A DNA stretch of 64,000 bases, from contig CBDCVR010000013.1 in assembly GCA_965223155.1 (NCBI GenBank), positions 1-64,000 of the forward strand, read 5' to 3'. Below are positions 24,317 through 45,135 of this stretch, piece after piece. The notes beneath the pieces are model-generated. The model ran no database searches and was not told the DNA's origin. It was given only the letters and a program-made list of their open reading frames with translations. The first letter of the stretch is position 1. Each line of letters begins with the position of its first letter. The position numbers and the translations under genes were made by a program. Source of the DNA: Candidatus Multivoradales bacterium (GTDB lineage: Bacteria; Acidobacteriota; Thermoanaerobaculia; Multivoradales; JAHEKO01).

Positions 24317-24371
24317 GCCGCCAAGAGCAGCCGCCAAGAGCCCCGCCGCCAAGAGCCCCGCCGACAAGAGC
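24317..24371. repeat. Short tandem repeat, 4x GCCG(C/A)CAAGAGC
   Basis: Copies at 24317, 24330, 24345 and 24360. Confidence 0.85.
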
Positions 24372-24586
24372 CTGGTACCTCTCGGCGCTGCAACCGGGGA
24401 GAGACCTGGTCTCGGCCCAAACTCCTGGCGAAACCGCAAGTCGAAGGTTTGCTGGTACTCGCAACCACGCCGAATGGGACCGGCCGATGCCGGGGGGCTC
24501 AGCACCTGCTCTACCGGCGCCGAACCGGGCCAGATATGGGATCGACGACGCTCTTCTACCGGTGCAGGCCGGCCAGATTGAAGTAA
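24372..24586 (+). pseudogene. 3' remnant of an Asp-box propeller gene
   Basis: Reads ..GETWSRPKLLAKPQVEGLLVLATTPNGTGRCRGAQHLLYRRRTGPDMGSTTLFYRCRPARLK*, homologous to the C-termini of the downstream copies; 5' part missing. Confidence 0.85.
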
Positions 24587-24610
24587 GGCCATTCAACAGG
24601 GGAGAACACG

Positions 24611-24937
24611 ATGGGAAATGGTGGACTCGACATAGCTTCTCGGAAGGCCGGGCCAAGGCGTTTGCATCCGCTCTTCGCGGGGCTCGTGATTCTTGCCGCC
24701 TCGGCTCTTGGACTGGTGTCCCCGGCGGCGGCGGCCAACGTCGCCCGGCCGGTGTACGACGCTCCGGACGATCTGCCGGACGACATGATGTGTGGCGATT
24801 CGGTGTCCGGGTACGTGCGGATGAAGAACAAGGGACAGCCCTGGAAGCGCCTGGCCGACGGTGGCGCCGGGCAGCGGCTGACGACGGCGGACTCTTGCCC
24901 GGTGCTAGCCTGCCTGGGACAAAGGAGGTCCGTATGA
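24611..24937 (+). CDS. Leader ORF copy L1: truncated N-terminus of the giant protein (signal peptide + partial Ig-like domain)
   Basis: First 94 aa nearly identical to 34394-34675; GGGGAG RBS; ATGA overlap with the next gene. Confidence 0.7.
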   Translation: MGNGGLDIASRKAGPRRLHPLFAGLVILAASALGLVSPAAAANVARPVYDAPDDLPDDMMCGDSVSGYVRMKNKGQPWKRLADGGAGQRLTTADSCPVLACLGQRRSV

Positions 24938-26172
24938 CCGATTGCCGAGCCCGCTGGTTGAGCGTTGGGGGTTTGTTGATGGTTTGTGTTCTGGCCTGGG
25001 GAACGTATCCCGCCGAGGCGGCCTGGACGAAGCCGCGACGCATCGGGCCGAGTGGTGGAAACCTAGTGCAGCCCGAGATCGCTGCGTCCGGTGCCTCCAT
25101 CCATGTGGTCTACCGGCCTGGGGGCGGAGGAGCAGTGCACGTGAGCAGCAGCGATTGTGGTGACACCTGGTCCGAAGTCAAGAACATACCGAGAACCATG
25201 CGCGGCAGCGGACATCAGGTCGCAGTTGTAGGTACGGTCGTGCATCTCGTCTGGACTCAATTCGAAGCGATTCGAGGCGTCGGGGGGACGCTCCAGGTCC
25301 TTTACAGACGAAGCGAGGATTCGGGAAGAACGTGGATGGCTAGGCAAAGGTTGTCGAGCACCGCGTGGCACAACGGTCTACCCTCACTCGCGGTACACGG
25401 TAACGATCTGTGGGTGGCATGGCCGCGTGGTGAAATTGTCCAGAATCGGTTTCGGGCCACGGGGGTGGTCGTCGCTCGAAGTCACAACCGAGGTCGGCGC
25501 TGGCGGCGACGTGCAGTGGTTGGGCACGCTCCCGGCGCCCGCCATCCTCGTATCGCGGTCGACCCCGATCTCCCGTCCGCGACGTCCCGACTGCATCTGG
25601 TCTGGGAACAAGAAGTTCCGGAGGAGGATCCGGAGTTCTTCAAGGAGCTCTTGCATCGCGAGAGCAGGGATGGCGGCCGTTCGTGGTCCGCTCCGGAACG
25701 CGTCAACGATCGACTTGGTCTCGAGGCGAGTGCTTTGATCGCTGTTGGAGGAGCCGCTCATGTGGCTCGACAGATCCTCCCGGGGTTTCCTAGGTCGCGA
25801 GCCGATGTCTTCTACTACCGAAAGCCTGGAGACGGAGCTTGGAGTCGGCAATGGCGTCTCAGCACACAGGATTTCGCCTCGGGTGCCAGGCTGGCAGGGG
25901 CTTCGGGCAGGCTATGGGCGGTATGGACGAATTTCTTGGGCCCCGCAGGGGGCGGCATCTCGGTACGCAGAAGTCGTAGCAACGGCGCGCGCTGGGCTCG
26001 GCCCCATGTCTTGCAGCCAGTCGAGGGTTCCTTCCCCGCGATCGCCATGCCTGTAGCCCCAGTCGGTTCATGTGCTGGGACCGCCCACCTGATCTATCAA
26101 GGCTTCGCGGAGGTGGATGGCGAGCAGGTCTTTGGGCTCGTCTACCAACGGAATCCGAGAAAGTTGCCTTAG
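24934..26172 (+). CDS. Secreted Asp-box (BNR)/sialidase-fold beta-propeller, divergent paralogue A (412 aa)
   Basis: AAGGAGG RBS; signal peptide ending AEA; Asp-boxes SSDCGDTW, SEDSGRTW, SRDGGRSW, SRSNGARW. Confidence 0.85.
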   Translation: MTDCRARWLSVGGLLMVCVLAWGTYPAEAAWTKPRRIGPSGGNLVQPEIAASGASIHVVYRPGGGGAVHVSSSDCGDTWSEVKNIPRTMRGSGHQVAVVGTVVHLVWTQFEAIRGVGGTLQVLYRRSEDSGRTWMARQRLSSTAWHNGLPSLAVHGNDLWVAWPRGEIVQNRFRATGVVVARSHNRGRRWRRRAVVGHAPGARHPRIAVDPDLPSATSRLHLVWEQEVPEEDPEFFKELLHRESRDGGRSWSAPERVNDRLGLEASALIAVGGAAHVARQILPGFPRSRADVFYYRKPGDGAWSRQWRLSTQDFASGARLAGASGRLWAVWTNFLGPAGGGISVRRSRSNGARWARPHVLQPVEGSFPAIAMPVAPVGSCAGTAHLIYQGFAEVDGEQVFGLVYQRNPRKLP

Positions 26173-26196
26173 TCGGGAACACAAGAGGAGCTTTGG

Positions 26197-26364
26197 ATGG
26201 GACCAAGCAAACGCATCGCGAACGCGGTCTTCATAGTCGGGATCACGGCGCTCATAGGCGCAGCGACTCCCACACTAGCCGCCAACAAGTCAGATGCTGT
26301 CGGCAACTCCCTCCCCTCCGAGATGATGTGTGGCGACCGTCAGGCCCTACGAAGAGCCACTTGA
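26197..26364 (+). pseudogene. Diverged leader relic (55 aa) of a second giant-protein paralogue
   Basis: GAGGAG RBS; MGPSKRIANAVFIVGITALIGAATPTLAANKSDAVGNSLPSEMMCGD.. matches the signal peptide + LPDDMMCGD pattern of the leaders. Confidence 0.6.
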
Positions 26365-26646
26365 CCTTGCGGCGTCATTTGCAATGTTTCGCCGCAAGAT
26401 CTAGGATCAATCTGCTGGTCCTCCCCTAGAGTCGGGACGCCGGGCTTGAGGCCCGGTCGAATCATGTGTAGGGAGGCTCATGTGTGGTGAGCGGAGGGAG
26501 ATGGGAACCTCATCCGATCGCGTACTGAGACAACTCGATCTGCGGCGCTCGGGCCGAACCACGGCCAGATGCGGCGGCACTGGACGGGGCTCTTCGACTC
26601 TTGGGACCTCGCCGGTCCTACCCTGCCTGGGACAAAGGAGGTCCGT

Positions 26647-27915
26647 ATGACCGATTGCCGATGGCACCGACGGTTGAGCGTTGGGGGGTTGTTGATGGTT
26701 TGTGTTCTGGCCTGGGGAACGTATCCCGCCGAGGCGGCCTGGAGTCGGCCGCAAGTCTTGCACAAGACAGTGTTTCTTGAAGATGGCGTGGCTCTTGCGG
26801 CGTCGGGAAATACGCTGCATGCCGTCTACTACGGAGAAGATCCGTCGCTCGAACAGAAGTCGATCATCTACTACCGCCGGAGCCGGGACTGCGGCACCAC
26901 GTGGAGTAGAGAGCAGCACGTAGCCGTCAACGAGTTCCACGGCGAGCTAGGGTTTGCCGCCGTCGGCGACGTGCTGCACCTGGCCTGGGCGGACCGAACA
27001 GTACGAGATCGCCGGAAGCGCTCGAAGCCGCGGGTCTTCTACGCCTCGAGCCGGGACGCCGGTCGCACCTGGAGCGAGCCGCGGTTGCTGTCTCCTCCGT
27101 CCTTCTACGCCGAGGCGCCGTCGTTGGCGGCATCGGGCGAGGAGGTCTACGTGGCCTATCGGCTCGGGGGAAAGGGGCCGAAACAGCGGTTCGAAAACCC
27201 ACGAATCGACCTTGCGGTGAGCACCGACGGGGGCGAGTCCTGGACTCGCCGGAGGGCAACACCGCGGGTGATAGCGAATGGCCCGCGGATCGCCTTGGCC
27301 GGACCACGGCCTGGCCTCGCTCCGCGTTTGCATCTGGTGTGGAGCGCCCACGACCCGCAAGGTCATGGTCCTCGCCATCAAGTCTCAGGAGACCGAGGCG
27401 CGACCTGGTCGAAGCAGCTGTTCTTGGATCAGAGCGGCCCAGAGACCGCCTCTTCGCATATCGAAGGCTTGGCGACTTCCGACGGGGACGTCCACACGGT
27501 TTGGCGAAGGCGTCCGGAAGGACCGTTTTCGGTTGAGGTCGTCTACGACAACAACGTCGGCGGTGGGTTTCATCCGGAAGGCCGGAAACTCAGTATCGAC
27601 CTGGACGCAGACATTCCGACCGCCCGTGCGGCGGCACTGGCAGTAGCGGGCCTGGCGGTCCACGTGGCCTGGTCGGAGGTCGGGCCGGCCGATGCTGCCC
27701 TGCTGTCTGTGCAAAGTGGCGATCGGGGGAGGACCTGGTCCCGGCCCAAGCTCTTGGCCAAGTCAAGAGTCGTTGGGGATACCGCCTTGGCAACGACACC
27801 CGATGGAGCCGGAGCGTGCCGGAGTGCCCAGCATTTGCTCTACCGGCGCCAACTCGGGTCCGGCCCAGGCTCGACGACGCTCTTCTACCGGCGCAGGCCG
27901 GCTAGATTGAAGTAG
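26647..27915 (+). CDS. Secreted Asp-box beta-propeller copy B1 (422 aa)
   Basis: RBS, signal peptide, Asp-boxes SRDCGTTW, SRDAGRTW, STDGGESW, SGDRGATW, SGDRGRTW. Confidence 0.88.
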   Translation: MTDCRWHRRLSVGGLLMVCVLAWGTYPAEAAWSRPQVLHKTVFLEDGVALAASGNTLHAVYYGEDPSLEQKSIIYYRRSRDCGTTWSREQHVAVNEFHGELGFAAVGDVLHLAWADRTVRDRRKRSKPRVFYASSRDAGRTWSEPRLLSPPSFYAEAPSLAASGEEVYVAYRLGGKGPKQRFENPRIDLAVSTDGGESWTRRRATPRVIANGPRIALAGPRPGLAPRLHLVWSAHDPQGHGPRHQVSGDRGATWSKQLFLDQSGPETASSHIEGLATSDGDVHTVWRRRPEGPFSVEVVYDNNVGGGFHPEGRKLSIDLDADIPTARAAALAVAGLAVHVAWSEVGPADAALLSVQSGDRGRTWSRPKLLAKSRVVGDTALATTPDGAGACRSAQHLLYRRQLGSGPGSTTLFYRRRPARLK

Positions 27916-27938
27916 GCCATTCAACAGGGGAGAACACG

Positions 27939-28265
27939 ATGGGAAATGGTGGACTCGACATAGCTTCTCGGAAGGCCGCGCCAAGACGATGGGGTACGTT
28001 CCTCGCTGGCTTCGTGATTCTTGCCGCCTCGGCTCTTGGACTGGTGTCCCCGGCGGCGGCGGCCAACGTCGCCCGGCCGGTGTACGACGCTCCGGACGAC
28101 CTGCCGGACGACATGATGTGTGGCGATTCGGTGTCCGGGTACGTGCGGATGAAGAACAAGGGGCAGCCCTGGAAGCGCCTGGCCGATGGTGGCGCCGGGC
28201 AGCGGCTGACGACGGCGGACTCTTGCCCGGTGCTAGCCTGCCTGGGACAAAGGAGGTCCGTATGA
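27939..28265 (+). CDS. Leader ORF copy L2
   Basis: As L1; carries the KAAPRRWGTF allele, same as the intact giant gene. Confidence 0.7.
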   Translation: MGNGGLDIASRKAAPRRWGTFLAGFVILAASALGLVSPAAAANVARPVYDAPDDLPDDMMCGDSVSGYVRMKNKGQPWKRLADGGAGQRLTTADSCPVLACLGQRRSV

Positions 28266-29527
28266 CCGATTGCCGAGCCCGCTGGTTGAGCGTTGGGGGT
28301 TTGTTGATGGTTTGTGTTCTGGCCTGGGGAACGTATCCCGCCGAGGCGGCCTGGAGTCGGCCGCAGAGGTTTCACACGACGAATCACGTATCGCAGGGAG
28401 CGGCCCTGGGCGCATCTGGGGACACTGTGCATGCCGTGTACTACGGGGAGGCTTCGCTCGAGCCTCTCGTGACGGCCATCTACTACCGACGCAGTCTGGA
28501 TTGCGGGTTGACGTGGGGCGGCGAGCGAGCGGTGGCATTCGATGCGCTCTACGGGTCCGTCAGCCTTGCCGCCGTCGGTGACGTGCTGCACCTGGCCTGG
28601 GCGGACCGAACGATACGGGATCGCCGGAAGCGCACGAAGCCGCGGGTCTTCTACGCTTCGAGCCGGGACGCCGGTCGCACCTGGAGCGATCCGAGGTTGC
28701 TGTCTCCTCCGTCCTTCTACGCCGAGGCGCCGTCGTTGGCGGCATCGGGCGACGAGGTCTACGTGGCCTACCGGCTCGGGGGAAAGGGGCCGAAACAGCG
28801 GTTCGAAAACCCACGAATCGACCTTGCGGTGAGCACCGACGGGGGCGAGTCCTGGACTCGCCGGAGGGCAACACCGCGGGTGATAGCGAATGGTCCGCGG
28901 ATCGCCTTGGCCGGACCACGGCCTGGCCTCGCTCCGCGTTTGCATCTGGTGTGGAGCGCCCACGACCCGCAAGGTCATGGTCCTCGCCATCAAGTCTCAG
29001 GAGACCGAGGCGCGACCTGGTCGAAGCAGCTGTTCTTGGATCCGAGCGGCCCAGAGACCTTCTCTTCGCATATCGAGGGCCTAGCGACATCCGGAAGCGA
29101 TGTCCATACGGTTTGGCGGAGATTCCCAGAGGAACCGGTTTCGATTGAGGTCGTTTACGACAACAACGTCGGCGGTGGGTTTCACTCAGAAGGCCGGAAA
29201 CTCAGTATCGACCTGGACGCAGACATTCCAACCGCCCGTGCGGCGGCACTGGCAGTAGCGGGCCTGGCGGTCCACGTGGCCTGGTCGGAGGTCGGGCCGG
29301 CCGATGCCGCCCTGCTGTCTGTGCGAAGTGGCGATCGAGGAGAGACTTGGTCCCGGCCCAAACTCTTGGCGAAATCAGCGGTGTTCGGGGATATCTCTTT
29401 GGCTACGACATCCGACGGAGTCGGGGCGTGTCGTGGCGCGCAGCACTTGATGTACCGGCGCAGAGGTGGCCCTCGTCCGGGCTCAACCAACCTTCTTTAC
29501 CGGCGCAGGCCGGCCAAATTGAAGTAG
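28262..29527 (+). CDS. Secreted Asp-box beta-propeller copy B2 (421 aa)
   Basis: As B1, with different allele blocks. Confidence 0.88.
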   Translation: MTDCRARWLSVGGLLMVCVLAWGTYPAEAAWSRPQRFHTTNHVSQGAALGASGDTVHAVYYGEASLEPLVTAIYYRRSLDCGLTWGGERAVAFDALYGSVSLAAVGDVLHLAWADRTIRDRRKRTKPRVFYASSRDAGRTWSDPRLLSPPSFYAEAPSLAASGDEVYVAYRLGGKGPKQRFENPRIDLAVSTDGGESWTRRRATPRVIANGPRIALAGPRPGLAPRLHLVWSAHDPQGHGPRHQVSGDRGATWSKQLFLDPSGPETFSSHIEGLATSGSDVHTVWRRFPEEPVSIEVVYDNNVGGGFHSEGRKLSIDLDADIPTARAAALAVAGLAVHVAWSEVGPADAALLSVRSGDRGETWSRPKLLAKSAVFGDISLATTSDGVGACRGAQHLMYRRRGGPRPGSTNLLYRRRPAKLK

Positions 29528-29553
29528 GGCAATCCAAGACAGGGGAGAACACG

Positions 29554-29880
29554 ATGGGAAATGGTGGACTCGACATAGCTTCTCGGAAGGCCGGGCCAAG
29601 GCGTTTGCATCCGCTCTTCGCGGGGCTCGTGATTCTTGCCGCCTCGGCTCTTGGACTGGTGTCCCCGGCGGCGGCGGCCAACGTCGCCCGGCCGGTGTAC
29701 GACGCTCCGGACGATCTGCCGGACGACATGATGTGTGGCGATTCGGTGTCCGGGTACGTGCGGATGAAGAACAAGGGGCAGCCCTGGAAGCGCCTGGCCG
29801 ATGGTGGCGCCGGGCAGCGGCTGACGACGGCGGACTCTTGCCCGGTGCTAGCCTGCCTGGGACAAAGGAGGTGCGTATGA
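29554..29880 (+). CDS. Leader ORF copy L3
   Basis: As L1. Confidence 0.7.
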   Translation: MGNGGLDIASRKAGPRRLHPLFAGLVILAASALGLVSPAAAANVARPVYDAPDDLPDDMMCGDSVSGYVRMKNKGQPWKRLADGGAGQRLTTADSCPVLACLGQRRCV

Positions 29881-31142
29881 CCGATTGCCGAGCCCGATGG
29901 TTGAGCGTTGGGGGTTTGTTGATGGTTTGTGTTCTGGCCTGGGGAACGTATCCCGCCGAGGCGGCCTGGAGTCGGCCGCAAGTCTTGCACAAGACAGTGT
30001 TTCTTGAAGATGGCGTGGCTCTTGCGGCGTCGGGAAATACGCTGCATGCCGTCTACTACGGAGAAGATCCGTCGCTCGAACAGAAGTCGATCATCTACTA
30101 CCGCCGGAGCCGGGACTGCGGCACCACGTGGAGTAGAGAGCAGCACGTAGCCGTCAACGAGTTCCACGGCGAGCTAGGGTTTGCCGCCGTCGGCGACGTG
30201 CTGCACCTGGCCTGGGCGGACCGAACAGTACGAGATCGACGGAAGCGCTCGAAGCCGCGGGTCTTCTACGCTTCGAGCCGGGACGCCGGTCGCACCTGGA
30301 GCGAGCCGCGGTTGCTGTCTCCTCCGTCCTTCTACGCAGAGGCGCCGTCGCTGGCGGCATCGGGCGAGGAGGTCTACGTGGCCTATCGGCTCGGGGGAAA
30401 GGGGCCGAAACAGCGGTTCGAAAACCCACGAATCGACCTTGCGGTGAGCACCGACGGGGGCGAGTCCTGGACTCGCCGGAGGGCAACACCGCGGGTGATA
30501 GCGAATGGCCCGCGGATCGCCTTGGCCGGACCACGGCCTGGCCTCGCTCCGCGTTTGCATCTGGTGTGGAGCGCCCACGACCCGCAAGGTCATGGTCCTC
30601 GCCATCAAGTCTCAGGAGACCGAGGCGCGACCTGGTCGAAGCAGCTGTTCTTGGATCAGAGCGGCCCAGAGACCTTCTCTTCGCATATCGAGGGCCTAGC
30701 GACTTCCGGCGGCGATGTCCATACGGTTTGGCGGAGATTCCCAGAGGAGCCGGTTGCGATCGAAGTCGTTTACGACAACAACGTCGGCGGTGGGTTTCAT
30801 CCAGAAGGGCGGAAACTCAGTATCGACCTGGACGCAGACATTCCAATCGCCCGTGCGGCGGCACTGGCAGTAGCGGGCCTGGCGGTCCACGTGGCCTGGT
30901 CGGAAGACGGGCCTCTGTCCACAGTCTTGTTGTCGGTGCGGAGCGGCGATCGGGGGAGGACCTGGTCCCGGCCCAAGCTCTTGGCCAAGTCAAGAGTCGT
31001 TGGGGATACCGCCTTGGCAACGACACCCGATGGAGCCGGAGCGTGCCGGAGTGCCCAGCACTTGCTCTACCGGCGCCAACTCGGGTCCGGCCCAGGTTCG
31101 ACGACGCTCTTCTACCGGCGCAGGCCGGCCAGATTGAAGTAA
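29877..31142 (+). CDS. Secreted Asp-box beta-propeller copy B3 (421 aa)
   Basis: As B1. Confidence 0.88.
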   Translation: MTDCRARWLSVGGLLMVCVLAWGTYPAEAAWSRPQVLHKTVFLEDGVALAASGNTLHAVYYGEDPSLEQKSIIYYRRSRDCGTTWSREQHVAVNEFHGELGFAAVGDVLHLAWADRTVRDRRKRSKPRVFYASSRDAGRTWSEPRLLSPPSFYAEAPSLAASGEEVYVAYRLGGKGPKQRFENPRIDLAVSTDGGESWTRRRATPRVIANGPRIALAGPRPGLAPRLHLVWSAHDPQGHGPRHQVSGDRGATWSKQLFLDQSGPETFSSHIEGLATSGGDVHTVWRRFPEEPVAIEVVYDNNVGGGFHPEGRKLSIDLDADIPIARAAALAVAGLAVHVAWSEDGPLSTVLLSVRSGDRGRTWSRPKLLAKSRVVGDTALATTPDGAGACRSAQHLLYRRQLGSGPGSTTLFYRRRPARLK

Positions 31143-31166
31143 GACCAGTTAACAGGGGAGAACACG

Positions 31167-31490
31167 ATGGGAAATGGTGGACTCGACATAGCTTCTCGGA
31201 AGGCCGGGCCAAGGCGTTTGCATCCGCTCTTCGCGGGGCTCGTGATTCTTGCCGCCTCGGCTCTTGGACTGGTGTCCCCGGCGGCGGCCAACGTCGCCCG
31301 GCCGGTGTACGACGCTCCGGACGACCTGCCGGACGACATGATGTGTGGCGATTCGGTGTCCGGGTACGTGCGGATGAAGAACAAGGGACAGCCCTGGAAG
31401 CGCCTGGCCGACGGCGGCGCCGGCCAGCGGCTGACGACTGCGGACTCTTGCCCGATGCTAGCCTGCCTGGGACAAAGGAGGTCCGTATGA
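31167..31490 (+). CDS. Leader ORF copy L4
   Basis: As L1, one Ala codon shorter. Confidence 0.7.
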   Translation: MGNGGLDIASRKAGPRRLHPLFAGLVILAASALGLVSPAAANVARPVYDAPDDLPDDMMCGDSVSGYVRMKNKGQPWKRLADGGAGQRLTTADSCPMLACLGQRRSV

Positions 31491-32752
31491 CCGATTGCCG
31501 AGCCCGATGGTTGAGCGTTGGGGGGTTGTTGATGGTTTGTGTTCTGGCCTGGGGAACGTATCCCGCCGAGGCGGCCTGGAGTCGGCCGCAGAGGTTTCAC
31601 ACGACCAATCACGTATCGCACGGAGCGGCCCTGGGCGCATCCGGGGACACTGTCCATGCCGTGTACTACGGGGAGGCTTCGCTCGAGCCTCTCGTGACGG
31701 CCATCTACTATCGACGCAGTCTGGATTGCGGGCTGACGTGGGGTCGCGAGCGAGCGGTGGCATTCGACGCGCTCTACGGGTCCGTCAGCCTTGCCGTGGT
31801 CGGCGACGTGCTGCACCTGGCTTGGGCGGACCGAACAGTACGAGATCGCCGGAAGCATCGGAAGCCGCGGGTCTTCTACGCCTCGAGCCGGGACGCCGGT
31901 CGCACCTGGAGCGAGCCGCGGTTGCTGTCTCCGCCGTCCTTCTACGCCGAGGCGCCGTCGTTAGCGGCATCGGGCGAGGAGGTCTACGTGGCCTATCGGC
32001 TCGGGGGAAAGGGGCCGAAACAGCGGTTCGAAAACCCACGAATCGACCTTGCGGTGAGCACCGACGGGGGCGAGTCCTGGACTCGCCGAAAGGCAACATC
32101 GCGAGTTACGGCGAATGGCCCGCGGATCGCCTTGGCCGAATCGCCGCCTGGTCTCGCTCCGCGTTTGCATCTGGTGTGGAGCGCCCACGACCCGCAAGGT
32201 CATGGTCCTCGCCATCAAGTCTCAGGGGACCGAGGCGCGACCTGGTCGAAGCAGCTGTTCTTGGATCAGAGCGGCCCAGAGACCGCCTCTTCGCATATCG
32301 AAGGCTTGGCGACTTCCGACGGGGACGTCCACACGGTTTGGCGAAGGCGTCCGGAAGGACCGTTTTCGGTTGAGGTCGTCTACGACAACAACGTCGGCGG
32401 TGGGTTTCATCCAGAAGGCCGGAAACTCAGTATCGACCTGGACGCAGACATTCCGACCGCCCGTGCGGCGGCACTGGCAGTAGCGGGCCTGGCGGTCCAC
32501 GTGGCCTGGTCGGAGGTCGGGCCGGCCGATGCCGCCCTGCTGTCGGTGCGAAGTGGCGATCGAGGAGAGACTTGGTCCCGGCCCAAACTCTTGGCGAAAT
32601 CAGCGGTGTTCGGGGATATCTCTTTGGCTACGACATCCGACGGAGTCGGGGCGTGTCGTGGCGCGCAGCACTTGATGTACCGGCGCAGAGGTGGCCCTCG
32701 TCCGGGCTCAACCAACCTTCTTTACCGGCGCAGGCCGGCCAAATTGAAGTAG
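31487..32752 (+). CDS. Secreted Asp-box beta-propeller copy B4 (421 aa)
   Basis: As B1. Confidence 0.88.
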   Translation: MTDCRARWLSVGGLLMVCVLAWGTYPAEAAWSRPQRFHTTNHVSHGAALGASGDTVHAVYYGEASLEPLVTAIYYRRSLDCGLTWGRERAVAFDALYGSVSLAVVGDVLHLAWADRTVRDRRKHRKPRVFYASSRDAGRTWSEPRLLSPPSFYAEAPSLAASGEEVYVAYRLGGKGPKQRFENPRIDLAVSTDGGESWTRRKATSRVTANGPRIALAESPPGLAPRLHLVWSAHDPQGHGPRHQVSGDRGATWSKQLFLDQSGPETASSHIEGLATSDGDVHTVWRRRPEGPFSVEVVYDNNVGGGFHPEGRKLSIDLDADIPTARAAALAVAGLAVHVAWSEVGPADAALLSVRSGDRGETWSRPKLLAKSAVFGDISLATTSDGVGACRGAQHLMYRRRGGPRPGSTNLLYRRRPAKLK

Positions 32753-32778
32753 GGCAATCCAAGACAGGGGAGAACACG

Positions 32779-33105
32779 ATGGGAAATGGTGGACTCGACA
32801 TAGCTTCTCGGAAGGCCGGGCCAAGGCGGTTGCATCCGCTCTTCGCGGGGTTCGTGATTCTTGCCGCCTCGGCCCTTGGACTGGCCTCCCCGGCGGCAGC
32901 AGCCAACGTCGCCCGGCCGGTGTACGACGCTCCGGACGACCTGCCGGACGACATGATGTGTGGCGATTCGGTGTCCGGGTACGTGCGGATGAAGAACAAG
33001 GGACAGCCCTGGAAGCGCCTGGCCGACGGCGGCGCCGGGCAGCGGCTGACGACTGCGGACACTTGCCCGGTGCTACGCTGCCGGGAACGAAGGAGGTCCG
33101 TATGA
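32779..33105 (+). CDS. Leader ORF copy L5
   Basis: As L1, with several private substitutions (tail TCPVLRCRERRRSV). Confidence 0.7.
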   Translation: MGNGGLDIASRKAGPRRLHPLFAGFVILAASALGLASPAAAANVARPVYDAPDDLPDDMMCGDSVSGYVRMKNKGQPWKRLADGGAGQRLTTADTCPVLRCRERRRSV

Positions 33106-34367
33106 CCGATTGCCGAGCCCGATGGTTGAGCGTTGGGGGACTGTTGATGGTCTGTGTTCTGGCCTGGGGGGCATATCCCGCCGAGGCGGCCTGGAGTCGG
33201 CCGCAGAGGTTTCACACGACCAATCACGCATCGCGCGGAGCGGCCCTGGGCGCATCCGGGGACACTGTCCATGCCGTGTACTACGGGGAGGCTTCGCTCG
33301 AGCCTCTCGTGACGGCCATCTACTATCGACGCAGTCTGGATTGCGGGCTGACGTGGGGTCGCGAGCGAGCGGTGGCATTCGACGCGCTCTACGGGTCCGT
33401 CAGCCTTGCCGTGGTCGGCGACGTGCTGCACCTGGCTTGGGCGGACCGAACAGTACGAGATCGCCGGAAGCATCGGAAGCCGCGGGTCTTCTACGCCTCG
33501 AGCCGGGACGCCGGTCGCACCTGGAGCGAGCCGCGGTTGCTGTCTCCGCCGTCCTTCTACGCCGAGGCGCCGTCGTTGGCGGCATCGGGCGAGGAGGTCT
33601 ACGTGGCCTATCGGCTCGGGGGAAAGGGGCCGAAACAGCGGTTCGAAAACCCACGAATCGACCTTGCGGTGAGCACCGACGGGGGCGAGTCCTGGACTCG
33701 CCGGAGGGCAACACCGCGGGTGATAGCGAATGGTCCGCGGATCGCCTTGGCCGGACCACGGCCTGGCCTCGCTCCGCGTTTGCATCTGGTGTGGAGCGCC
33801 CACGACCCGCAAGGTCATGGTCCTCGCCATCAAGTCTCAGGAGACCGAGGCGCGACCTGGTCGAAGCAGCTGTTCTTGGATCAGAGCGGCCCAGAGACCT
33901 TCTCTTCGCATATCGAGGGCCTAGCGACATCCGGAAGCGATGTCCATACGGTTTGGCGGAGATTCCCAGAGGAACCGGTTTCGATTGAGGTCGTTTACGA
34001 CAACAACGTCGGCGGTGGGTTTCACTCAGAAGGCCGGAAACTCAGTATCGACCTGGACGCAGACATTCCAACCGCCCGTGCGGCGGCACTGGCAGTAGCG
34101 GGCCTGGCGGTCCACGTGGCCTGGTCGGAGGTCGGGCCGGCCGATGCCGCCCTGCTGTCTGTGCGAAGTGGCGATCGAGGAGAGACTTGGTCCCGGCCCA
34201 AACTCTTGGCGAAATCAGCGGTGTTCGGGGATATCTCTTTGGCTACGACATCCGACGGAGTCGGGGCGTGTCGTGGCGCGCAGCACTTGATGTACCGGCG
34301 CAGAGGTGGCCCTCGTCCGGGCTCAACCAACCTTCTTTACCGGCGCAGGCCGGCCAAATTGAAGTAG
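33102..34367 (+). CDS. Secreted Asp-box beta-propeller copy B5 (421 aa)
   Basis: As B1. Confidence 0.88.
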   Translation: MTDCRARWLSVGGLLMVCVLAWGAYPAEAAWSRPQRFHTTNHASRGAALGASGDTVHAVYYGEASLEPLVTAIYYRRSLDCGLTWGRERAVAFDALYGSVSLAVVGDVLHLAWADRTVRDRRKHRKPRVFYASSRDAGRTWSEPRLLSPPSFYAEAPSLAASGEEVYVAYRLGGKGPKQRFENPRIDLAVSTDGGESWTRRRATPRVIANGPRIALAGPRPGLAPRLHLVWSAHDPQGHGPRHQVSGDRGATWSKQLFLDQSGPETFSSHIEGLATSGSDVHTVWRRFPEEPVSIEVVYDNNVGGGFHSEGRKLSIDLDADIPTARAAALAVAGLAVHVAWSEVGPADAALLSVRSGDRGETWSRPKLLAKSAVFGDISLATTSDGVGACRGAQHLMYRRRGGPRPGSTNLLYRRRPAKLK

Positions 34368-34393: not shown

Positions 34394-37300
34394 ATGGGAA
34401 ATGGTGGACTCGACATAGCTTCTCGGAAGGCCGCGCCAAGACGATGGGGTACGTTCCTCGCTGGCTTCGTGATTCTTGCCGCCTCGGCTCTTGGACTGGT
34501 GTCCCCGGCGGCGGCGGCCAACGTCGCCCGGCCGGTGTACGACGCTCCGGACGATCTGCCGGACGACATGATGTGTGGCGATTCGGTGTCCGGGTACGTG
34601 CGGATGAAGAACAAGGGGCAGCCTTGGAAGCGCCTGGCGGACGGCGGCGCCGGCCAGCGGCTGACGACGGCGGACAACCCCCTGGTCAAGGCCGGAACCC
34701 GTGTGTACAAGCTCAAGGCGGGGACCACGGTTCGGAGAGGCAAGGTCTACGATTTTCCGGTCACTCTCACGGCACCTGAACATTCAAACTACACGACCTT
34801 TGTCGAGTACACCGCAGTCTGGGAGATGGGCCTCCCAGACGGATCGACCTTTCCGCATCCCTACGAACACACGGTGCGGGTGTGGTGTCCGAGGCGCACC
34901 CAGAACAACGCGATTGTCGTCGGGCATAACCTCCCCGGCTCAGTGCCTTGTGGCGAGACGGTCGGAGAGTCCGGCGATCTTTGGGTGGAGATGAAGAACG
35001 TCGGAGGCCGCACTTGGAGGCCAAGACGGAAGAAGGGGGATGGCCAGCACCTGTACACGCCTGACAATCCGTTCCATCCCGAAGTCTCGATTCCGCTACC
35101 GGTGAATACGACCGTCCAACCCCTGGAGACCCATCGATTCCCGGTGCGGCTGACGGCTCCGGAAGCCTATGGCGTCCACGACGTCACGTTCCGAATGCGA
35201 CCGCACAAGGGAAAACCCTTCGGCGAAGAGCTGCCGTGGACCCTCACTTCGCAGTGCGCCAATAACGATGCCCAGTTCGTGGAGACCAAGACGACGGTCC
35301 CCGCGACCATGAGCTGCGGTGCGGAGGGCGACTACCACGTCGCATTCCTCAATACCGGCGACACTCGCTGGAAGAAGGGCAAGTACTCTCTTCGTCTGTT
35401 CGACGGCCCCTTCGGGACCAAGAATCTCAAGGTTCGAGGGCAAGACGTTCGTCCAACCCGGGATCGGCGATTCCCGGTACGCCTTGTGGCTCCGAGCGAG
35501 AACGGGACGCATACGACGACCTGGCGGATGCACACAGGCGCGGGAGTGCCGTTCGGGGAGGCCACGACGTTGTCGATCGACGTCACGGATTGCCAGGAGC
35601 CGGAGCCGCTGGACGCGGCGCCCGTTCCAAGCGGTATCGACTTCCCATCCACGATGCAGTGCGGCTCGACCTACCCCGCTACCTTGACGATGAGAAATAC
35701 CGGCACCAAGAACTGGAAAGAGAGAAAGCCGCACCACCGTCTGCGCCCCGTGGCGGGGAAGAACGACCGGTTCTGGCGAAGGATCCGTATGGTTAAGCTT
35801 CCCGACGGTGTCGTCGTCGGTGAGAACGGCACCCATCCGTTCGAAATGACCCTCTCGGCTCCGATCTTGGACCCGTCGGAGCCCGAGGTTATGAATCTCT
35901 CTACCAGTTGGACCATGGTCGAGGTTCGAGAGGACGAGACCGAGGCTTTTGGGACGCCCTACGGACAGGACATCGAAGTTGTTTGTCTGGACTACGATTC
36001 CGAGGAGGTGAAGAAGAACGCCTCGGTTCAGGTGGCGCCGGGAGGGTCCATCCGCTTTGTCATCGAGGTCAAGAACAGCGGACGGCGCAACTGGGTGACT
36101 CCCGAGCTGCGAGACATTAGCGGTACGTTCGTGAAGAGGTCGTACGGTGGGACGGTGGCTTCGCAGGGAAGCCATGTCTTTGGCTTCACGCGAACTGCCC
36201 CGTCGGCGATAGGTACCTACGCGACCCAGTGGCAGATCTGGGAACCAACTGCGGGCCTCTTCGGCGCGGTCATCTCGATTCAAGTCACGGTCTCGGAGGG
36301 CTCGTCTGAAGTGGGCTCGTGCACCGGCGGAGGCTCCGCGGCCAAGCTGCCGCGCCTGGGCATTCTGGGGTTCAATCCGCGCTATCTGACACAGGACGGA
36401 AACGCCGCCTATGTCCTGACCGGAGCCCATAGCTGGAGCGTGGTGCAGAAGCACGAGCGAATGAACAAGCTCGAAGGCTACATGAGCAAGCTACGCGGCA
36501 AAGGCCACAATTTCACCCGGGGATGGTACTGGGAGGACTGTTTCTACGACCCCATTCCGTATAGCGCAAGCCAGTACAAGTGCATGGATCCCGGCAAGAG
36601 CTTTTTGCCGACGGCGGATGAGCCTGGGAATGGTTACAACCAGGCGTACGCAGATCTCCTCAAGGCCCGTCTCAACGAGGCCGCCGACAACGACCTCTAC
36701 ATGAGCACGATGCTCTTCCAGGGGTGGAGTCTGCCCATTAGCTTACGGAAGGAAGAGGGTGGAGTCGATGGTTGGGCCCGGAATCCGTATCGTAAGGAAT
36801 TCGCGGACGGCAGGGCACTCCACTCCGACGGGATTCTTGACGAGCAGATCTACTACGCCAACTACATCCTGAACCAGACCAAGGGCTGCACCAACACCTT
36901 CTTTGAAGTTTCGAACGAGAGCGTCGTGACCGGCCAGGTGGCTGGGGAGAAGTGGCAGAGGCTAGTTGTCACCGAGATCAAGAAAAAGATCTGCGGTCAG
37001 AAACCCTGCCTGGCCTGGGCCTCCTGCTGGTTCGGGGCGTCCAACACCGCTCTGATCGGCACGGGCGCGGATCTGGTCTCCTTTTGCGGGAACGATCCGG
37101 ATTCGCCTGACTGGGCCGGCGGCGATGCGGTCCTCATCTTTGACACGGACCATGTTGACGCCGAGAATCCGAATCCGAAGCGGGCGTGGAAAGCGTTCCT
37201 ACGAGGGCAGCACCCGATCCTGATGGATCTCGAGACCGAGGACCTGGTCTGGTACAAGCCGGGCCAGAACTTTCCCAACCAAACTCAGAAGAACGGTTCC

Positions 37301-40300
37301 CGGGACTATGGACTTGCGCTCGGAGAGATCCAAGCGATCATCGACAAGATCAATGACAATGGCGACTACGTCCAAGGCAGTGAGGGGATCGCCAGGTCCA
37401 AGAGCCGGCTCAAGCACCTGGCGCCGGTTGCTCCCGCCCAAGAAGGCATCGTCGGCTCGAGCTCGCCGAACTTTGCGCTGTTCTCCAGCGGGACTCCGTG
37501 TCCCGGGTTCTCGGCGAACCAGAAGTGCGGACTTGCTGCTCCAAACGGCAAGGAGTTCGTTGTGTACGCTGAACAGGGTGTCCAAGTCTGTTCGCTGACC
37601 GTGGGCTCGTCGTACCTGGCCTCTTGGAAGAATCCGTTTGCGAACGGGTACTTTCTCGAAGACATCAAGCGGGACGGCGTTTCCAACTGTGAGACCTTCG
37701 GCTACCCGCAGGCGGCGGGAGACTTCGCGGTCCTGCATTTGACCCGCCTCGAGAATCCGCCTTCAGCTTCGATCGCAGCGTTCCGGGCCGGGCAAGAGCT
37801 TCCGGCTCCGGTCAAGATCTCCACCCGCCAGCAACTGGATCTCTACGGTAGCGATTCGACGACCGATCCGTTGACCTATGCTTGGGAGTTTGGCGACGGA
37901 CACGCGGGCCCGGCCGAAGAGCAAGTGGATCACATCTACGAAGAGCCAGGTGTGTACGTGGTCGAGCTCGAGGTAACCGATGACGATGGCCAGACCGCTT
38001 TCGCCGAGCTAGAGATCACCGCGGTCGATGGTCCGGTCGCGACCTTCGTCACGAGTCCGCGGGCGGAAGGGGGGGTGGTTACGGTGCTCGACGGCGATGA
38101 GGTGGGCTTTGACGCGACGTACTCGACGAGCGATCCGCTGCACCCGATCGTCTCCTACGAGTGGGATTTTGGTGACGGAACGGCAGCTGACGGTGCGGCG
38201 CTGGCGGAGACGACACATACTTTCGTCGTCGGACCGGGTGTGAGCGAGACGAGCTATACGGTGGGATTGAGGGTCCGAGACGACTTGGATGCGGCCTCCG
38301 ATCTGGAGACGGTCGTCGTGCGAGTCCAGCTGGCCCCGGCAATCGTTGTCCAGCCGCAGGACGCTACGGCCACCGAGGGCGAAACAGTGAGCCTCTCGTG
38401 TGTTGCGACTGGCGCGCCGCCGCTCGTCTATCGGTGGCTGAAGAATGATGAAGAACTCTTGGATGGTGTCGGGGTCTCGGGCGCGGGTACCGCGACGTTG
38501 ACGCTAAGCGCGCTCGAAGAGCCAGACTCCGGACGATACCGGTGCCGCGTCGAGAACCCCGTTGGCGAAGCCGAGTCCGAGGAAGCTGAGATGTCCGTCG
38601 GTGCTGCGCCTACGATCGTCACTTCGCCGGTCACGATCGAGACGAACCGGGGTGGAGAGGCCGATCTCCGCTGCTGGGTCGAGGCGGCCGAACCGCTGAC
38701 CTGGCAGTGGTACAAGGACTCTGCAGCCGCTGCCGACGGAGGTCCGATCGCGGGAGTTGACAGTCAGACCCTTCGGATTACGAACGCCGATGGGCTGGAG
38801 GCCGGCGAGTACTACTGCTCCGTCTCGAACCCACTAGGATCCATGACGTCCGGGATCTTTACCGTTCGCCACATTCCCTGGAAGGCCTACCCGATCGCGA
38901 CGATCTCTTCCGAAGGCTTCACCAACACGGCCGAGACCGAGCCGATTCACGAGGCGCTGAACGACCAGGAGAATCTGGCGACATCGACCGCCGATGACGG
39001 CGTGTTGGATTCGCTCCGGGTGGGGATGGCCGCGGTGGACGATCCGAACACCGACTACGGTCACGAGGTCTATGTCTGGGGCAACGCGCTCGATGCGGCG
39101 ACGTGTGCCATCGAGGTGAGGCTCTCTCAAGGCTCGATCGAGCTGGCCTCGGGGAGTCTGGTGCTGGAGGACGAGGCCACGAGCGAGGACGGTTGGGTGC
39201 GGTTGGAGGTCCCGGCCGAGGCCGCGGCCAACATCAGCGACTACGGCGACGTCCAGATCGAGGTCGAGAAGATCCACGATCCGGCCAATGTCTGCCGGGC
39301 CGAGCTCGAGCGCATCGTCTTCCGGGTGCCGCCGTCGCCGACGCCGGTGGAGATCGCCGTGCCGGTGGCTACGGAGTCGAACGAAGGCTTCAGCGCAGAG
39401 CCGATTCATGAACAACTGGACGACGCGGACAACGTCGCGACGTCCACGGTCGCGGACGGTACGTTGGATGCCTTCGTGGTGCGGATGGGCGCGGTGAGCG
39501 ATCCGGGGGTGGATGAGGGGCATGTGGTCAGGGTGTGGGGCGCGGCTCTCGATGCGGAGCCTGTGGAGGTTCGGCTGAGCCTCTATCAGGGGCCGGCGCT
39601 TCTGGCGACTCTGGATGTCTCGTTCCCCTCGTGGACGAAGGTGGTACGGATCGAGTTACCGACGGCGCTCGCGGCGCTGATTACCGACTACACGGATCTA
39701 AGGCTGGGTGTCGAGAAGACCCACGCCGGCGTCAACGGCTCGGACCGGCGCGTCGAGATCCGGAAGATCGAGTTCGAGGTGCCGATTCCGCCGGCGATCA
39801 CGCAGCACCCTTCGGGTCAGACGATCGGGGTGGGGCAGACGGCCAACTTCACTTGTGCCGCCTCCGGTTCGGAGTCGCTGGTCTACCAGTGGCAGAAGGA
39901 CGGCGTGGATCTGGTGGACGGCGGCTCGATCTCGGGTGCCGAGACCGAGAGTCTCACCATCACGAACGCCCAGCTTGCCGATGCCGGCGCCTACCGGTGC
40001 GTGGCGATGGAAAGCGATGCTTCGGCGTACTCGGACGAGGCTGTCCTGGACGTGGGCGTGCCGCCGGCGATTACGGCCGATCCGGAGCCCGCGACGGCGC
40101 CGCTGGGAGGTCAGGCCAGTTTCTCGTGCTCGGCGACGGGCAGCGGTACGTTGGCGTACTTGTGGTTCCAGGATGGGGTCGGTCTGGTGGATTCGGCCCG
40201 GATCTCGGGAGCCTCGACGCCGACGGTGACGATGACCGATCTCGAGGCCGGGGATGTGGGTGAGTACTCGTGCCAGGTGGCGAGCCCGTACGGCTCGGCC

Positions 40301-42705: not shown

Positions 42706-44256
42706 CTATCTGAGCGCCCGCTTCAGGATCTTGCCGGTCGGCCCTTTGGGGAGCTCGTCTAGGATCTCGACCAGGCGCGGGTATTTGTAGGCGGCGAGGC
42801 GCTCCTTGCAGTAGGCGACGAGGTCGTCGGCGCTCGGCCGCTCGCCGTCCCTGAAGGCGACGACCGCTTTGACCTCCTCGCCCAGCCGGTCGTCGGGCGC
42901 GCCGATGACGGCGGCTTCGAGGATGGCGGGGTGGGCGTAAAGGATCTCTTCGATCTCGCGCGGGTAGACGTTGAAGCCGCCCCGGATAATCATGTCTTTC
43001 TTGCGATCCACGATGAAGTAGTAGCCGTCCTCGTCCCGGGTGGCGATGTCGCCGGTGTGGAACCAGCCGTCCACGATGGACTCGGCGTTGGCCTCGGGCC
43101 GGTTGAAGTAGCCCTTCATGACGTTGTGGCCCTTGATCAGGATCTCGCCGGGCGTGTCGATTTCCTCGACGATCGAGCCGTCGTCGGCCTCCAGCCGGAA
43201 CTCGACGCCGTGGATCGGGATGCCGACCGAGCCGGCCTTCTTGGGGCGGTCCAGAACGTTGAACGAGGCCACCGGCGAGGTCTCGGACAGGCCATAGCCT
43301 TCGAGGATGTTGACGCCGTATTTCTCGTCAAACGCGGTCATCACCTCGACCGGCATAGCCGCGCCTCCCGAGATACAGAACTGGAGGCTCGAGAGATCGT
43401 AGCTGTCGGCCTCCGGATGATGGAGGAGAGCGAAGTACATGGTCGGCACGCCGCCGAAGAAAGTCACCCGGTGCTCTTGCATCAGCTCCAGCGCCGCGGT
43501 GGGATCGAAGCGCGGCAGCAGAATGACCGTGCCGCCGACCGCGAGGGTGGCGGTCAGGATGACGCTCTGGCCGAAGCTGTGAAAGAGGGGCAGGGCCGCC
43601 AGGGCGACGGTGTCCTCGGGCAAGGGCAAGAGCTTGGTCGAGGTGTAGTAGGCGTTGAAGAAGGAGTTGAAGTGGGTGAGCTCGGCACCCTTGGGACGCC
43701 CCGTGGTGCCCGACGTATAGAGGATGACGGCGGTGTCGTCGGGCATGGTGGGTTCGATCTCGGTGAGCGGGTCGGCCTCGGCCAGGAGGGTCGAGAAGTC
43801 CTCGGTGGTCTCCGGGGGCTGAGACCCGGCACCGGCATCCGCGCCCGCGGGCTCGCCCTGGGGGCGGACGGCGACCAAGAGCCGGCAACCGTCCGCGTCC
43901 GCGACCGCCTCCGATGCCGGCTCGAGGCAGTCGAGCCAGGCGACCAGCGCCACGGCCTGGGAGTCTTCCAGGTGGTAGTGGATCTCCTCGGCCTTGAGGA
44001 GGACGTTGAGGGGCACCACGACCGCGCCGGCGTAGAGAATCCCGTAGTAGGCGATCGCGAATTGGGGCACGTTCGGCACCAGGAGAGCTACGTGGTCGCC
44101 GGGCGCGACCCCCCGCTGCCGTAGCGCTCCCGCGAAGGCTTGGGCCGAGCCGTGGAGCTCGCGGTAGGACAGCCGCGCGTCACCGAGAACGATGGCGGTC
44201 TTGTCCGGAACCCGATGGGCCGAGTCGCGGAGCAGTTGGGCCAGGTTGAGACTCAT
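42706..44256 (-). CDS. Long-chain fatty-acid--CoA ligase (FadD-like)
   Basis: YTSGTTGRPKG, EGYGLSET, FHTGD, DRKKDMI, PKGPTGKILK. Confidence 0.93.
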   Translation of the reverse strand: MSLNLAQLLRDSAHRVPDKTAIVLGDARLSYRELHGSAQAFAGALRQRGVAPGDHVALLVPNVPQFAIAYYGILYAGAVVVPLNVLLKAEEIHYHLEDSQAVALVAWLDCLEPASEAVADADGCRLLVAVRPQGEPAGADAGAGSQPPETTEDFSTLLAEADPLTEIEPTMPDDTAVILYTSGTTGRPKGAELTHFNSFFNAYYTSTKLLPLPEDTVALAALPLFHSFGQSVILTATLAVGGTVILLPRFDPTAALELMQEHRVTFFGGVPTMYFALLHHPEADSYDLSSLQFCISGGAAMPVEVMTAFDEKYGVNILEGYGLSETSPVASFNVLDRPKKAGSVGIPIHGVEFRLEADDGSIVEEIDTPGEILIKGHNVMKGYFNRPEANAESIVDGWFHTGDIATRDEDGYYFIVDRKKDMIIRGGFNVYPREIEEILYAHPAILEAAVIGAPDDRLGEEVKAVVAFRDGERPSADDLVAYCKERLAAYKYPRLVEILDELPKGPTGKILKRALR

Positions 44257-44322
44257 GACATGCCTCCCGGCGGGTCCGGTCTCGGAGAACGGGACGCGCG
44301 GCGCCCCGTCGCTGTTGTTTCC

Positions 44323-44952: not shown

Positions 44953-45135
44953 TTTCAGTTTTCCCGAGTCGGTATAAGATTTTGGTTGCACGCGGGGCGA
45001 TCGATCGAGTCGCTGCTACCGAGTCCCGGGTGCGAACCCCCGAACATCTCGATCCGCACATCCCGGCTCGCATCATCTAAGGCCGATCGCGAGCTCCGCC
45101 CCGAATTGCGAAGACTATCCCGAGTCCCTGTGAGA

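Follow-up and report, generated by a model that had tools for sequence, protein, structure and literature searches.

Comparison with described systems

Judging from the parts of the published accounts that are available, concerted evolution by ectopic gene conversion in bacterial multigene families is the closest known kind of process to the one considered here. The subject is a head-to-tail array of five genes for secreted beta-propeller proteins (B1 to B5) in the genome of a Candidatus Multivoradales bacterium (assembly GCA_965223155.1). It lies in a stretch of 64,000 nucleotides (nt), here called the window, which is the first 64 kb of contig CBDCVR010000013.1 (1,242,760 bases). The five copies are mosaics of discrete allele blocks. 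They probably owe their structure to gene conversion and unequal crossover within a lineage-specific tandem family of predicted seven-bladed Asp-box propellers.

In Mycobacterium tuberculosis, gene conversion has been described for a PE_PGRS gene pair and in association with repeats. According to the available portions of the two sources (PMC1762029, PMC12046097), paralogs swap tracts by homologous recombination there as well, and the outcome, as in the array, is a set of identity stretches, mosaic copies and conflicting phylogenetic signal. The array differs from this case in consisting of five head-to-tail propeller genes, and in that each unit carries a duplicated 5' piece of a giant gene. 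The contrast within the array is also extreme, since islands with a synonymous divergence (dS) of 0.8-2.7 lie in homogenised DNA with a dS of 0-0.15. The yeast FLO paralogs, in the extracts of PMC3512402 that could be used, are similar in that surface or secreted paralogs recombine into chimeric adhesin alleles, but they are eukaryotic, subtelomeric and dispersed.

The vls system of Borrelia is an obvious further comparison. In the accessible text of PMC11499132 and PMC2632889, contiguous related cassettes exchange segments by gene conversion and thereby give rise to mosaics; the system has a single expression site besides its silent cassettes, and conversion is unidirectional. In contrast, the array contains five complete genes and one truncated remnant, has ratios of non-synonymous to synonymous divergence (dN/dS) far below 1, and yielded no cis motif.

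Layout of the array

The genome comprises 4.0 Mb in 15 contigs (three of them of 1.24-1.33 Mb) and is 98.7% complete. The array occupies 24.4-34.4 kb of the window, and its units start every 1610-1615 bp, a spacing that escapes Tandem Repeats Finder, which has a maximum period of 500. Each unit consists of a leader open reading frame (ORF) of 107-108 amino acids (aa) and a propeller gene of 421-422 aa. The propeller genes have a strong AAGGAGG Shine-Dalgarno sequence, an ATG start and a signal peptide that, in our own reading of the cleavage site, ends in AEA|AW. All five are intact, with a single, terminal stop codon in each ORF, and their proteins are 84-96% identical to each other in the alignment.

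Three allele blocks recur in the propeller genes, an N block (allele X or Y), a mid block (P or Q, with the variant Q' in B3) and a C block (M or N). The genes are as follows:

26647..27915, plus strand: B1, haplotype X-P-M, type I; N block 26754-26953, mid block 27448-27543, C block 27726-27905
28262..29527, plus strand: B2, haplotype Y-Q-N, type II
29877..31142, plus strand: B3, haplotype X-Q'-M; mid block 30675-30770; patch SEDGPLSTV at 30905-30944
31487..32752, plus strand: B4, haplotype Y-P-N; mid block 32285-32380; patch KATSRVT..ESPP at 32089-32152
33102..34367, plus strand: B5, haplotype Y-Q-N; a hybrid, B4-like in alignment columns 138-479 and B2-like in columns 786-1335

All seven propeller matches in the 4.0-Mb genome fall within the array. 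No donor copies were detected elsewhere in the genome, and neither the B3 patch nor the B4 patch finds a better match anywhere else in it. The propeller copies may be transcribed as one operon. Between 23000 and 42900, 2 promoter-like sites were found against 1.8 expected, which is evidence neither for nor against separate transcription units, and 10 terminator-like sites against 11.4 expected, which is equally uninformative on this point.

Mosaic structure of the copies

In the DNA alignment of B1 to B5, 245 of the 1269 columns are variable, and the variable columns group the copies in conflicting ways. A set of 130 columns separates B1 and B3 from B2, B4 and B5; these columns make up the N block (columns 108-307) and the C block (columns 1080-1259). 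The N blocks of B1 and B3 do not differ at all, and these two copies are referred to as type I, with B2, B4 and B5 as type II. Another 21 clustered columns, in the mid block (columns 802-897) plus column 972, group B1 with B4 and separate this pair from B2, B3 and B5. Nine columns unite B4 and B5 (columns 171-450) and six unite B2 and B5 (columns 636-928). Private columns number 26 in B3, mostly in columns 1032-1071, and 14 in B4, mostly in columns 606-669. Since these partitions are mutually incompatible, a single tree fails for the sites concerned.

The blocks stand out sharply from their surroundings. B1 and B2 differ at 89 of 205 nt in the N block, at 23 of 105 in the mid block and at 50 of 194 in the C block, whereas in columns 676-795 every pair of copies has only 0-2 differences (B1 and B2 have one in 120 nt). 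Columns 901-1026 hold 0-4 differences per pair, and columns 310-600 hold 1-18. The mid block of B4 is identical to that of B1, the identity spanning columns 745-929, and that of B3 is Q-like with seven differences from B2.

Recombination tests agree with this picture. None of 2000 shuffles reached the observed pairwise homoplasy index (PHI) with windows of 10 and 20 informative sites. The Hudson-Kaplan minimum number of recombination events (Rm) is 4 or more for the genes alone and 9 or more once the following leader is included; in the alignment with the leader, the C block and a 10-site leader patch occur in all four combinations. Long identical tracts are shared by B1 and B3 (323 nt), B4 and B5 (342 nt), B2 and B5 (550 nt) and B1 and B4 (185 nt), pairs that differ at 56-197 sites overall, and in none of these cases did any of 1000 permutations produce a tract of such length. 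The longest shared tract exceeds all 1000 permutations in nine of the ten pairs of copies; in the tenth pair, one permutation in 1000 matched it.

An earlier note on this DNA, made from the sequence alone, had described the copies as combinatorial mosaics. The haplotypes that it gave for the five genes, with B3 as X-Q-M, are reproduced exactly by the protein alignment. That recombination among the copies is required, in line with what it had inferred, is borne out by the failure of the four-gamete test over blocks of many sites and by the significant PHI and tract tests. The competing view of a single tree founders on the 130-site and 21-site partitions, on PHI and on Rm. The combinatorial character of the blocks holds for the N and mid blocks, which occur in the combinations claimed, but not for the N and C blocks, which are fully linked in all five copies. 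Because of this linkage, only two of the four N-C combinations and four of the eight possible three-block haplotypes are found. The linkage is only suggestive, as there are just five copies (six with a protein from another assembly, P0002, see below) and these share ancestry. The note had further described the DNA between the blocks as near-invariant, which fits columns 676-795 but is too strong for columns 310-600. The B3 and B4 patches, which it took to be private, are not, as both are present together in P0002.

Old alleles in homogenised DNA

Nei-Gojobori estimates of dS and dN/dS were obtained separately for each block. In columns 676-795 and 901-1026, the differences are too few for dS to be computed. 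The values for the other segments are:

N block: dS 2.0-2.7, dN/dS 0.16-0.24
Mid block (alleles P and Q): dS 0.8-1.05, dN/dS 0.12-0.17
C block: dS about 1.0, dN/dS 0.15-0.16
B3 patch: dS 1.3-2.3, dN/dS 0.12-0.19
B4 patch: dS 0.28-0.34, dN/dS 0.41-0.50
Columns 310-600: dS 0.07-0.17, dN/dS 0.15-0.28

B1 and B2, for example, have a dS of 2.0 in the N block and of 0.08 in columns 310-600. In one and the same pair of genes, dS thus changes more than tenfold from one segment to the next, a contrast that only recombination produces. The combination of high dS with low dN/dS in the blocks marks them as old alleles within recently homogenised DNA. The blocks are therefore islands, old allele lineages that have passed through purifying selection, and represent neither hypervariable nor newly generated diversity. 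Homogenisation is as prominent in the array as shuffling. The two N-block alleles also differ in base composition, with a GC content of 0.57 for X and 0.64 for Y.

Protein fold and location of the blocks

B1 matches the Pfam family BNR_2 (PF13088) with 68.9 bits, against a curated cut-off of 31.4. It contains five Asp-boxes (S-x-D-x-G-x-T-W) at residues 79-86, 135-142, 192-199, 247-254 and 357-364, and the S, D, G and W columns of these boxes are invariant or at least 90% conserved among 30 relatives. Searched as a profile, these relatives hit sialidase and GH74 chains (E = 1e-29 to 1e-10), with only parts of the protein covered. No NCBIfam family scored above its cut-off for B1, B2 or B0 (a diverged paralog upstream of B1, see below), and a single-sequence search of solved structures returned only matches of the size of an Asp-box (E >= 0.006).

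The AlphaFold2 (AF2) model of the protein has a mean predicted local distance difference test score (pLDDT) of 86.5 and a predicted template modelling score (pTM) of 0.87. Its strands form seven blades and an additional N-terminal strand at residues 36-41. In a VIA-align 2 comparison, in which the listed matches all span about residues 30-420, the nearest neighbours are the CylK propeller (Z 36), GH145 chains (Z 29-31), the PL42 rhamnose-glucuronate lyase (Z 29.7) and the PLL/PHL lectins (Z 27-28), all of which we take to be seven-bladed propellers. Identity to every solved chain, including those of these neighbours and of the GH74 and GH33 families, is only 7-17%. The exo-sialidases of family GH33 have six blades, an arginine triad, a Tyr/Glu nucleophile pair and an acid/base Asp. 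The GH33 sialidase chains listed by Foldseek reach lower TM-scores, of about 0.43-0.57 by either normalisation, the model being seven-bladed and GH33 six-bladed. The proteins are best described as secreted Asp-box propellers that are probably carbohydrate-binding or carbohydrate-active, and they are not filed as sialidases.

In their boxes, their propeller fold and in having fewer boxes than blades (five and a predicted seven, respectively), the proteins resemble the Asp-box beta-propellers treated in PMC2716378. According to the available part of that source, Asp-boxes sit between strands 3 and 4 of a blade, and the face on which they lie is opposite the active site. When this topology rule is applied to the model, the N block (residues 36-103) takes in the putative closing strand and blade 1 and extends into the first strand of blade 2, and the C block (residues 360-420) spans blade 7 and the strand before it, the last one of blade 6. 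The two blocks thus map to blades 1 and 7, which form one adjacent sector of the ring, and by the same rule strand 36-41 would contact blade 7. The co-inheritance of the two blocks may reflect structural co-adaptation across this predicted closure, or merely shared history. The B4 patch (residues 202-223), the mid block (residues 268-299) and the B3 patch (residues 344-357) are parts of blades 3/4, 5 and 6, respectively.

Blades 1 and 7 carry 46 of the 80 variable residues. With loop faces assigned by the topology rule and not from coordinates, variable residues account for 31 of 95 positions in active-site-face loops; the corresponding counts are 17 of 86 for the opposite face (Fisher p = 0.064) and 32 of 201 for the strands (p = 0.0014). 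These data modify the idea, put forward in the earlier note, of blade-level shuffling that diversifies a binding surface. The N and C blocks do correspond roughly to blades 1 and 7, but the mid block and the patches are smaller than a blade. The variable residues are spread over strands and both faces of the model, and their enrichment in the loops assigned to the active-site face is modest. The diversification of a binding surface is not supported by the dN/dS values (0.12-0.24, and 0.41-0.50 for the B4 patch) or by the near-saturated dS, which indicate old, purified alleles.

Leader ORFs and the giant gene

The array ends in the gene for a giant secreted protein, from which the leader ORFs are derived. 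The leader ORFs and the giant gene are:

24611..24937, plus strand: leader L0, 108 aa, 94-99% nt identity to the other leader copies
27939..28265, plus strand: leader L2, patch type 'a' (APRRWGTF) at 27982-28014
29554..29880, plus strand: leader L3, patch type 'g' (GPRRLHPL)
31167..31490, plus strand: leader L4, 107 aa, patch type 'g', with a 3-nt in-frame deletion
32779..33105, plus strand: leader L5, patch type 'g' with private changes
34394..42484, plus strand: gene for the giant secreted protein, 2696 aa from the given ATG, intact; the array ends in it

Each leader ORF is a copy of the opening 285 nt of the giant gene, followed by a 42-nt junction tail. The duplicated part includes the Shine-Dalgarno sequence of the giant gene, its signal peptide and its first 95 codons, and the junction at nt 285/286 of the giant gene is common to all six leader copies. 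The TGA stop codon of the leader overlaps the ATG of the next propeller gene (ATGA). Among B1 to B5, only B1 lacks a leader ORF. The leader had been noticed before as a part of the propeller genes that assorts separately. Both of its types are indeed present, yet it is a separate ORF of 107-108 aa derived from the signal-peptide region of the giant gene, and not a propeller leader.

The two types differ at 12 sites within nt 44-76. The giant gene and the leader before B2 have type 'a', the remaining copies type 'g'. As the giant gene shares its type with one leader only, this functional gene takes part in the exchange. Outside this patch, the six copies (five leaders and the giant gene) have 11 synonymous and one non-synonymous codon changes (binomial 3e-6). 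Either the leader peptides are under selection, or they are repeatedly overwritten by the functional giant gene. The leader ORF has no Pfam match and matches no NCBIfam family above its cut-off.

The giant protein has Pfam matches to N_BRCA1_IG, PKD, six Ig/I-set domains and, weakly, Laminin_G_3. Repeats of about 190 aa that belong to no known family (for example around WKAYPIATISS) lie between the Ig domains, and the centre of the protein contains a stretch without any Pfam match. Downstream, an AMP-binding enzyme gene (42706-44256) is oriented divergently from two adjacent ORFs, 44140-47391 (1083 aa) and 47388-49304 (638 aa), each of which matches Pfam PF01663 (type I phosphodiesterase/nucleotide pyrophosphatase).

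Remnants upstream of B1

Ahead of the first of the five genes, the array extends further in an older form, with three features:

24392..24586, plus strand: truncated propeller C-terminus, 64 codons plus stop, 72% aa identity to B1 residues 359-422
24934..26172, plus strand: B0, a diverged paralog, 36% aa identity to B1
26173..26646, plus strand: spacer before B1, 474 nt, unique; only its final 35 nt, the Shine-Dalgarno region, match the other units

The truncated remnant carries a third C-block allele, identical to M at 168-171 of 238-239 nt and to N at 155 of 239, and its homology sets in precisely where the C block does. Ahead of it, at 24317-24372, a 15-nt unit, GCCGCCAAGAGCCCC, is repeated in tandem 3.9 times. 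B0 matches BNR_2 with E = 1e-12 (48.5 bits against the cut-off of 31.4, queried from 24901). Its leader and signal peptide (24596-25030) are 95-99% identical to the array and belong to its homogenised sequence. Right at the predicted signal-peptide cleavage site, B0 falls to 36% protein identity, and the divergence between X and Y begins within about 10 nt of the same point.

Related sequences outside the window

A second assembly, of a close relative, has a contig of 25,234 bases that is known from its proteins only. One of them, P0002, is 89% identical to B1. It has the X and M blocks and both the B3 and the B4 patch, together with a third mid allele and one more novel stretch. In P0031, a C-terminal fragment, the B3 patch is likewise accompanied by the M block. 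The Y block of P0032 resembles that of B5, after which the protein runs out of frame, and P0033, which is partly out of frame, combines LDPSG with the P mid block, a pairing that does not occur in the window. P0032 and P0033 read alternative frames of a propeller gene, as a result either of indel errors in the assembly or of decay of strain copies. P0008, from the same contig, is a diverged paralog. The presence of the B3 and B4 patches in this assembly means that they are real shared alleles and that further combinations exist.

Four public sequencing runs (X1 to X4), which come from one study and two samples and are kept as contigs, were compared over 30576-32176, less than one period of the array. 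Their depth values are totals over all copies. The B4 patch occurs with no differences in contigs of all four runs, and the B3 patch is joined to the M block in contigs of X1, X3 and X4. One contig of X2 departs from the leader at 31422 into sequence that is absent from both the window and the genome; this may be a junction variant within the population, or it may belong to another organism.

Three of the four other genomes of the same genus have a single homolog each, with 33-36% identity; these homologs are not syntenic, and orthology is not established. Within the stretches fetched around them, no homolog of the giant gene, the leader or the flanking genes was found. The other 36 genomes searched gave no propeller match. 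Scans of collections with signal-peptide patterns yielded 154 and 82 stretches, none of which was confirmed as a relative, and conserved-core scans of metagenome and genome collections yielded 10 and 11 loci with only 26-43% identity. The expansion of the array is lineage-specific.

Origin of the mosaic

Gene conversion together with unequal crossover would account for the array as follows. A single illegitimate duplication would have fused the giant gene, at nt 285, to a point some 40 nt ahead of a propeller start, and the resulting repeat unit of about 1615 bp would have been amplified by unequal homologous recombination. The general homologous recombination machinery would then move tracts of about 40-550 nt between copies. 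This exchange would homogenise most of the unit, including the leader, the signal peptide and the propeller core, and the occasional transfer of an old, diverged island into another copy would give the block mosaic. The islands would be remnants of functional allele lineages, three or more in number, that have persisted for a long time. Types I and II, which may differ in function, are represented in the window, and the putative type III lineage is known only from the other assembly.

Several individual exchanges can be proposed. As B4 has the mid block of B1, a P tract was presumably copied into a type II gene. The B3 patch, with its Q-like mid block, and the B4 patch look like tracts of a third allele type. 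B5 has the pattern that a single crossover hybrid or a long conversion tract would leave in the sequence. The exchanged pieces are mostly internal and about 40-250 nt long, which points to gene conversion over single unequal crossovers. The earlier suggestion of either gene conversion or unequal crossover can thus be narrowed, since patch-like conversion prevails and only B5 resembles a simple hybrid. The locus has clustered incompatible tracts, a strong contrast in dS, and paralogs that are closer to each other than to the homologs in related genomes, as in concerted evolution.

Some observations weigh against this explanation. When the window is widened to 50 informative sites, PHI is no longer significant (1727 of 2000 shuffles), and by simple counting the full linkage of N and C blocks has a chance of 1 in 10 to 1 in 20. 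The others bear on the possibility that the mosaics are chimeras, formed when strains or repeat units were merged as the 8-kb array was assembled or its consensus polished. The four runs hold just 0.53-0.61 of the sampled array words, and over the array their contigs fragment to 103-442 nt, which is too short to link the blocks. The 3-nt deletion of L4 is absent from the contigs of all four runs, and the Q' variants of B3 are seen in X3 only. The contigs of X1, X3 and X4 with the B3 patch turn B1-like further along the M block, and thus represent coexisting variants or mixed graph paths. On account of these mismatches, the population or the assembly must differ in detail from the window. The assembly of the close relative has other combinations alongside frameshifted products (P0032, P0033), and its 25,234-base contig looks error-prone or decayed and is of uncertain quality. 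Nevertheless, an origin of the mosaics in the assembly is unlikely. Contigs of 1.24-1.33 Mb would fit reads that span 8 kb, and the tracts that match another copy completely run for 185-550 nt and end sharply, without site-by-site mixing. None of the five genes or the five leader ORFs is disrupted, the B3 and B4 patches recur in run contigs and in P0002, and P0002 is itself a mosaic.

It is tempting to compare the locus with systems of antigenic variation, and to regard it as a selected, programmed cassette system in a non-pathogen that makes combinations of ligand-binding blades, with the truncated remnant as a silent donor. The alleles are discrete and di- or trimorphic, with sharp edges at the signal-peptide cleavage site and where the C block begins, boundaries that B0 and the remnant share. 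Different combinations occur in the second assembly, the variable residues are concentrated in a single two-blade sector (46 of 80) and are commoner in the assigned active-site-face loops than in strands (p = 0.0014), and very old alleles persist despite homogenised flanks. On the other hand, there is no layout of expression site and silent cassettes, as each of the five copies is a gene in full frame, complete with Shine-Dalgarno sequence, ATG and signal peptide. The dN/dS values are 0.12-0.5 in all blocks, none of the five copies uses the allele of the remnant, and a handful of events suffices for the pattern. The genome has no donors elsewhere, and the array region lacks a G4 (guanine quadruplex) motif and long inverted repeats. 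A pilE-like G4 motif was found on neither strand between 23000 and 36000, and the inverted repeats in this region (17 pairs) do not exceed 31 nt and are 74-88% complementary, which offers nothing usable to an inversion or shufflon system. With its five full-length genes, one truncated remnant and dN/dS of 0.12-0.50, the locus shows neither the silent cassettes nor the diversifying selection of variation systems like vls, pilE/pilS, tprK or msp2. A diversity-generating retroelement was rejected because the substitutions in the patches involve all four bases and no template copy exists in the genome; a reverse transcriptase was not searched for. We therefore consider a programmed system rather improbable. 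A bolder proposal is a standing generator of combinatorial blade cassettes for secreted carbohydrate-binding propellers in a free-living non-pathogen, in which the old lineages of blades 7 and 1, held together by the closing strand, would be kept by selection, the patches of blades 4-6 freely exchanged, and the copies translationally coupled to giant-gene decoys under purifying selection. This reading is unlikely.

The divergent blocks and patches could also have been brought in from other strains or species by homologous recombination. Donors of the B3 and B4 patches are not found in the genome, P0002 has both patches as well as alleles that do not occur in the window, and the GC content of the X block is below that of the Y block. 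However, the main exchanges have resident sources (the mid block of B4 equals that of B1, and the halves of B5 match B4 and B2), and a donor copy may simply have left the array. No close relatives turned up in the collections searched, so that an outside pool is represented by the one other contig alone. Import from outside as the source of the pattern is very unlikely.

Implications

Gene conversion and unequal crossover among resident copies remain our preferred explanation, and no new molecular mechanism is indicated. The array is a clean example of a known process, and an unusually clean one, in which recombination within a tandem family wipes out old variation and also reshuffles it. In one and the same gene, stretches of saturated dS adjoin others that do not differ between copies.

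If long reads confirm the structure, the locus would provide a compact system, in an environmental bacterium, for the study of conversion-tract lengths and of the divergence barrier to recombination. One could then ask whether the closure of the propeller forces the joint inheritance of its first and last blades. Finally, it could be asked what slightly different secreted propellers do beside a giant surface protein.

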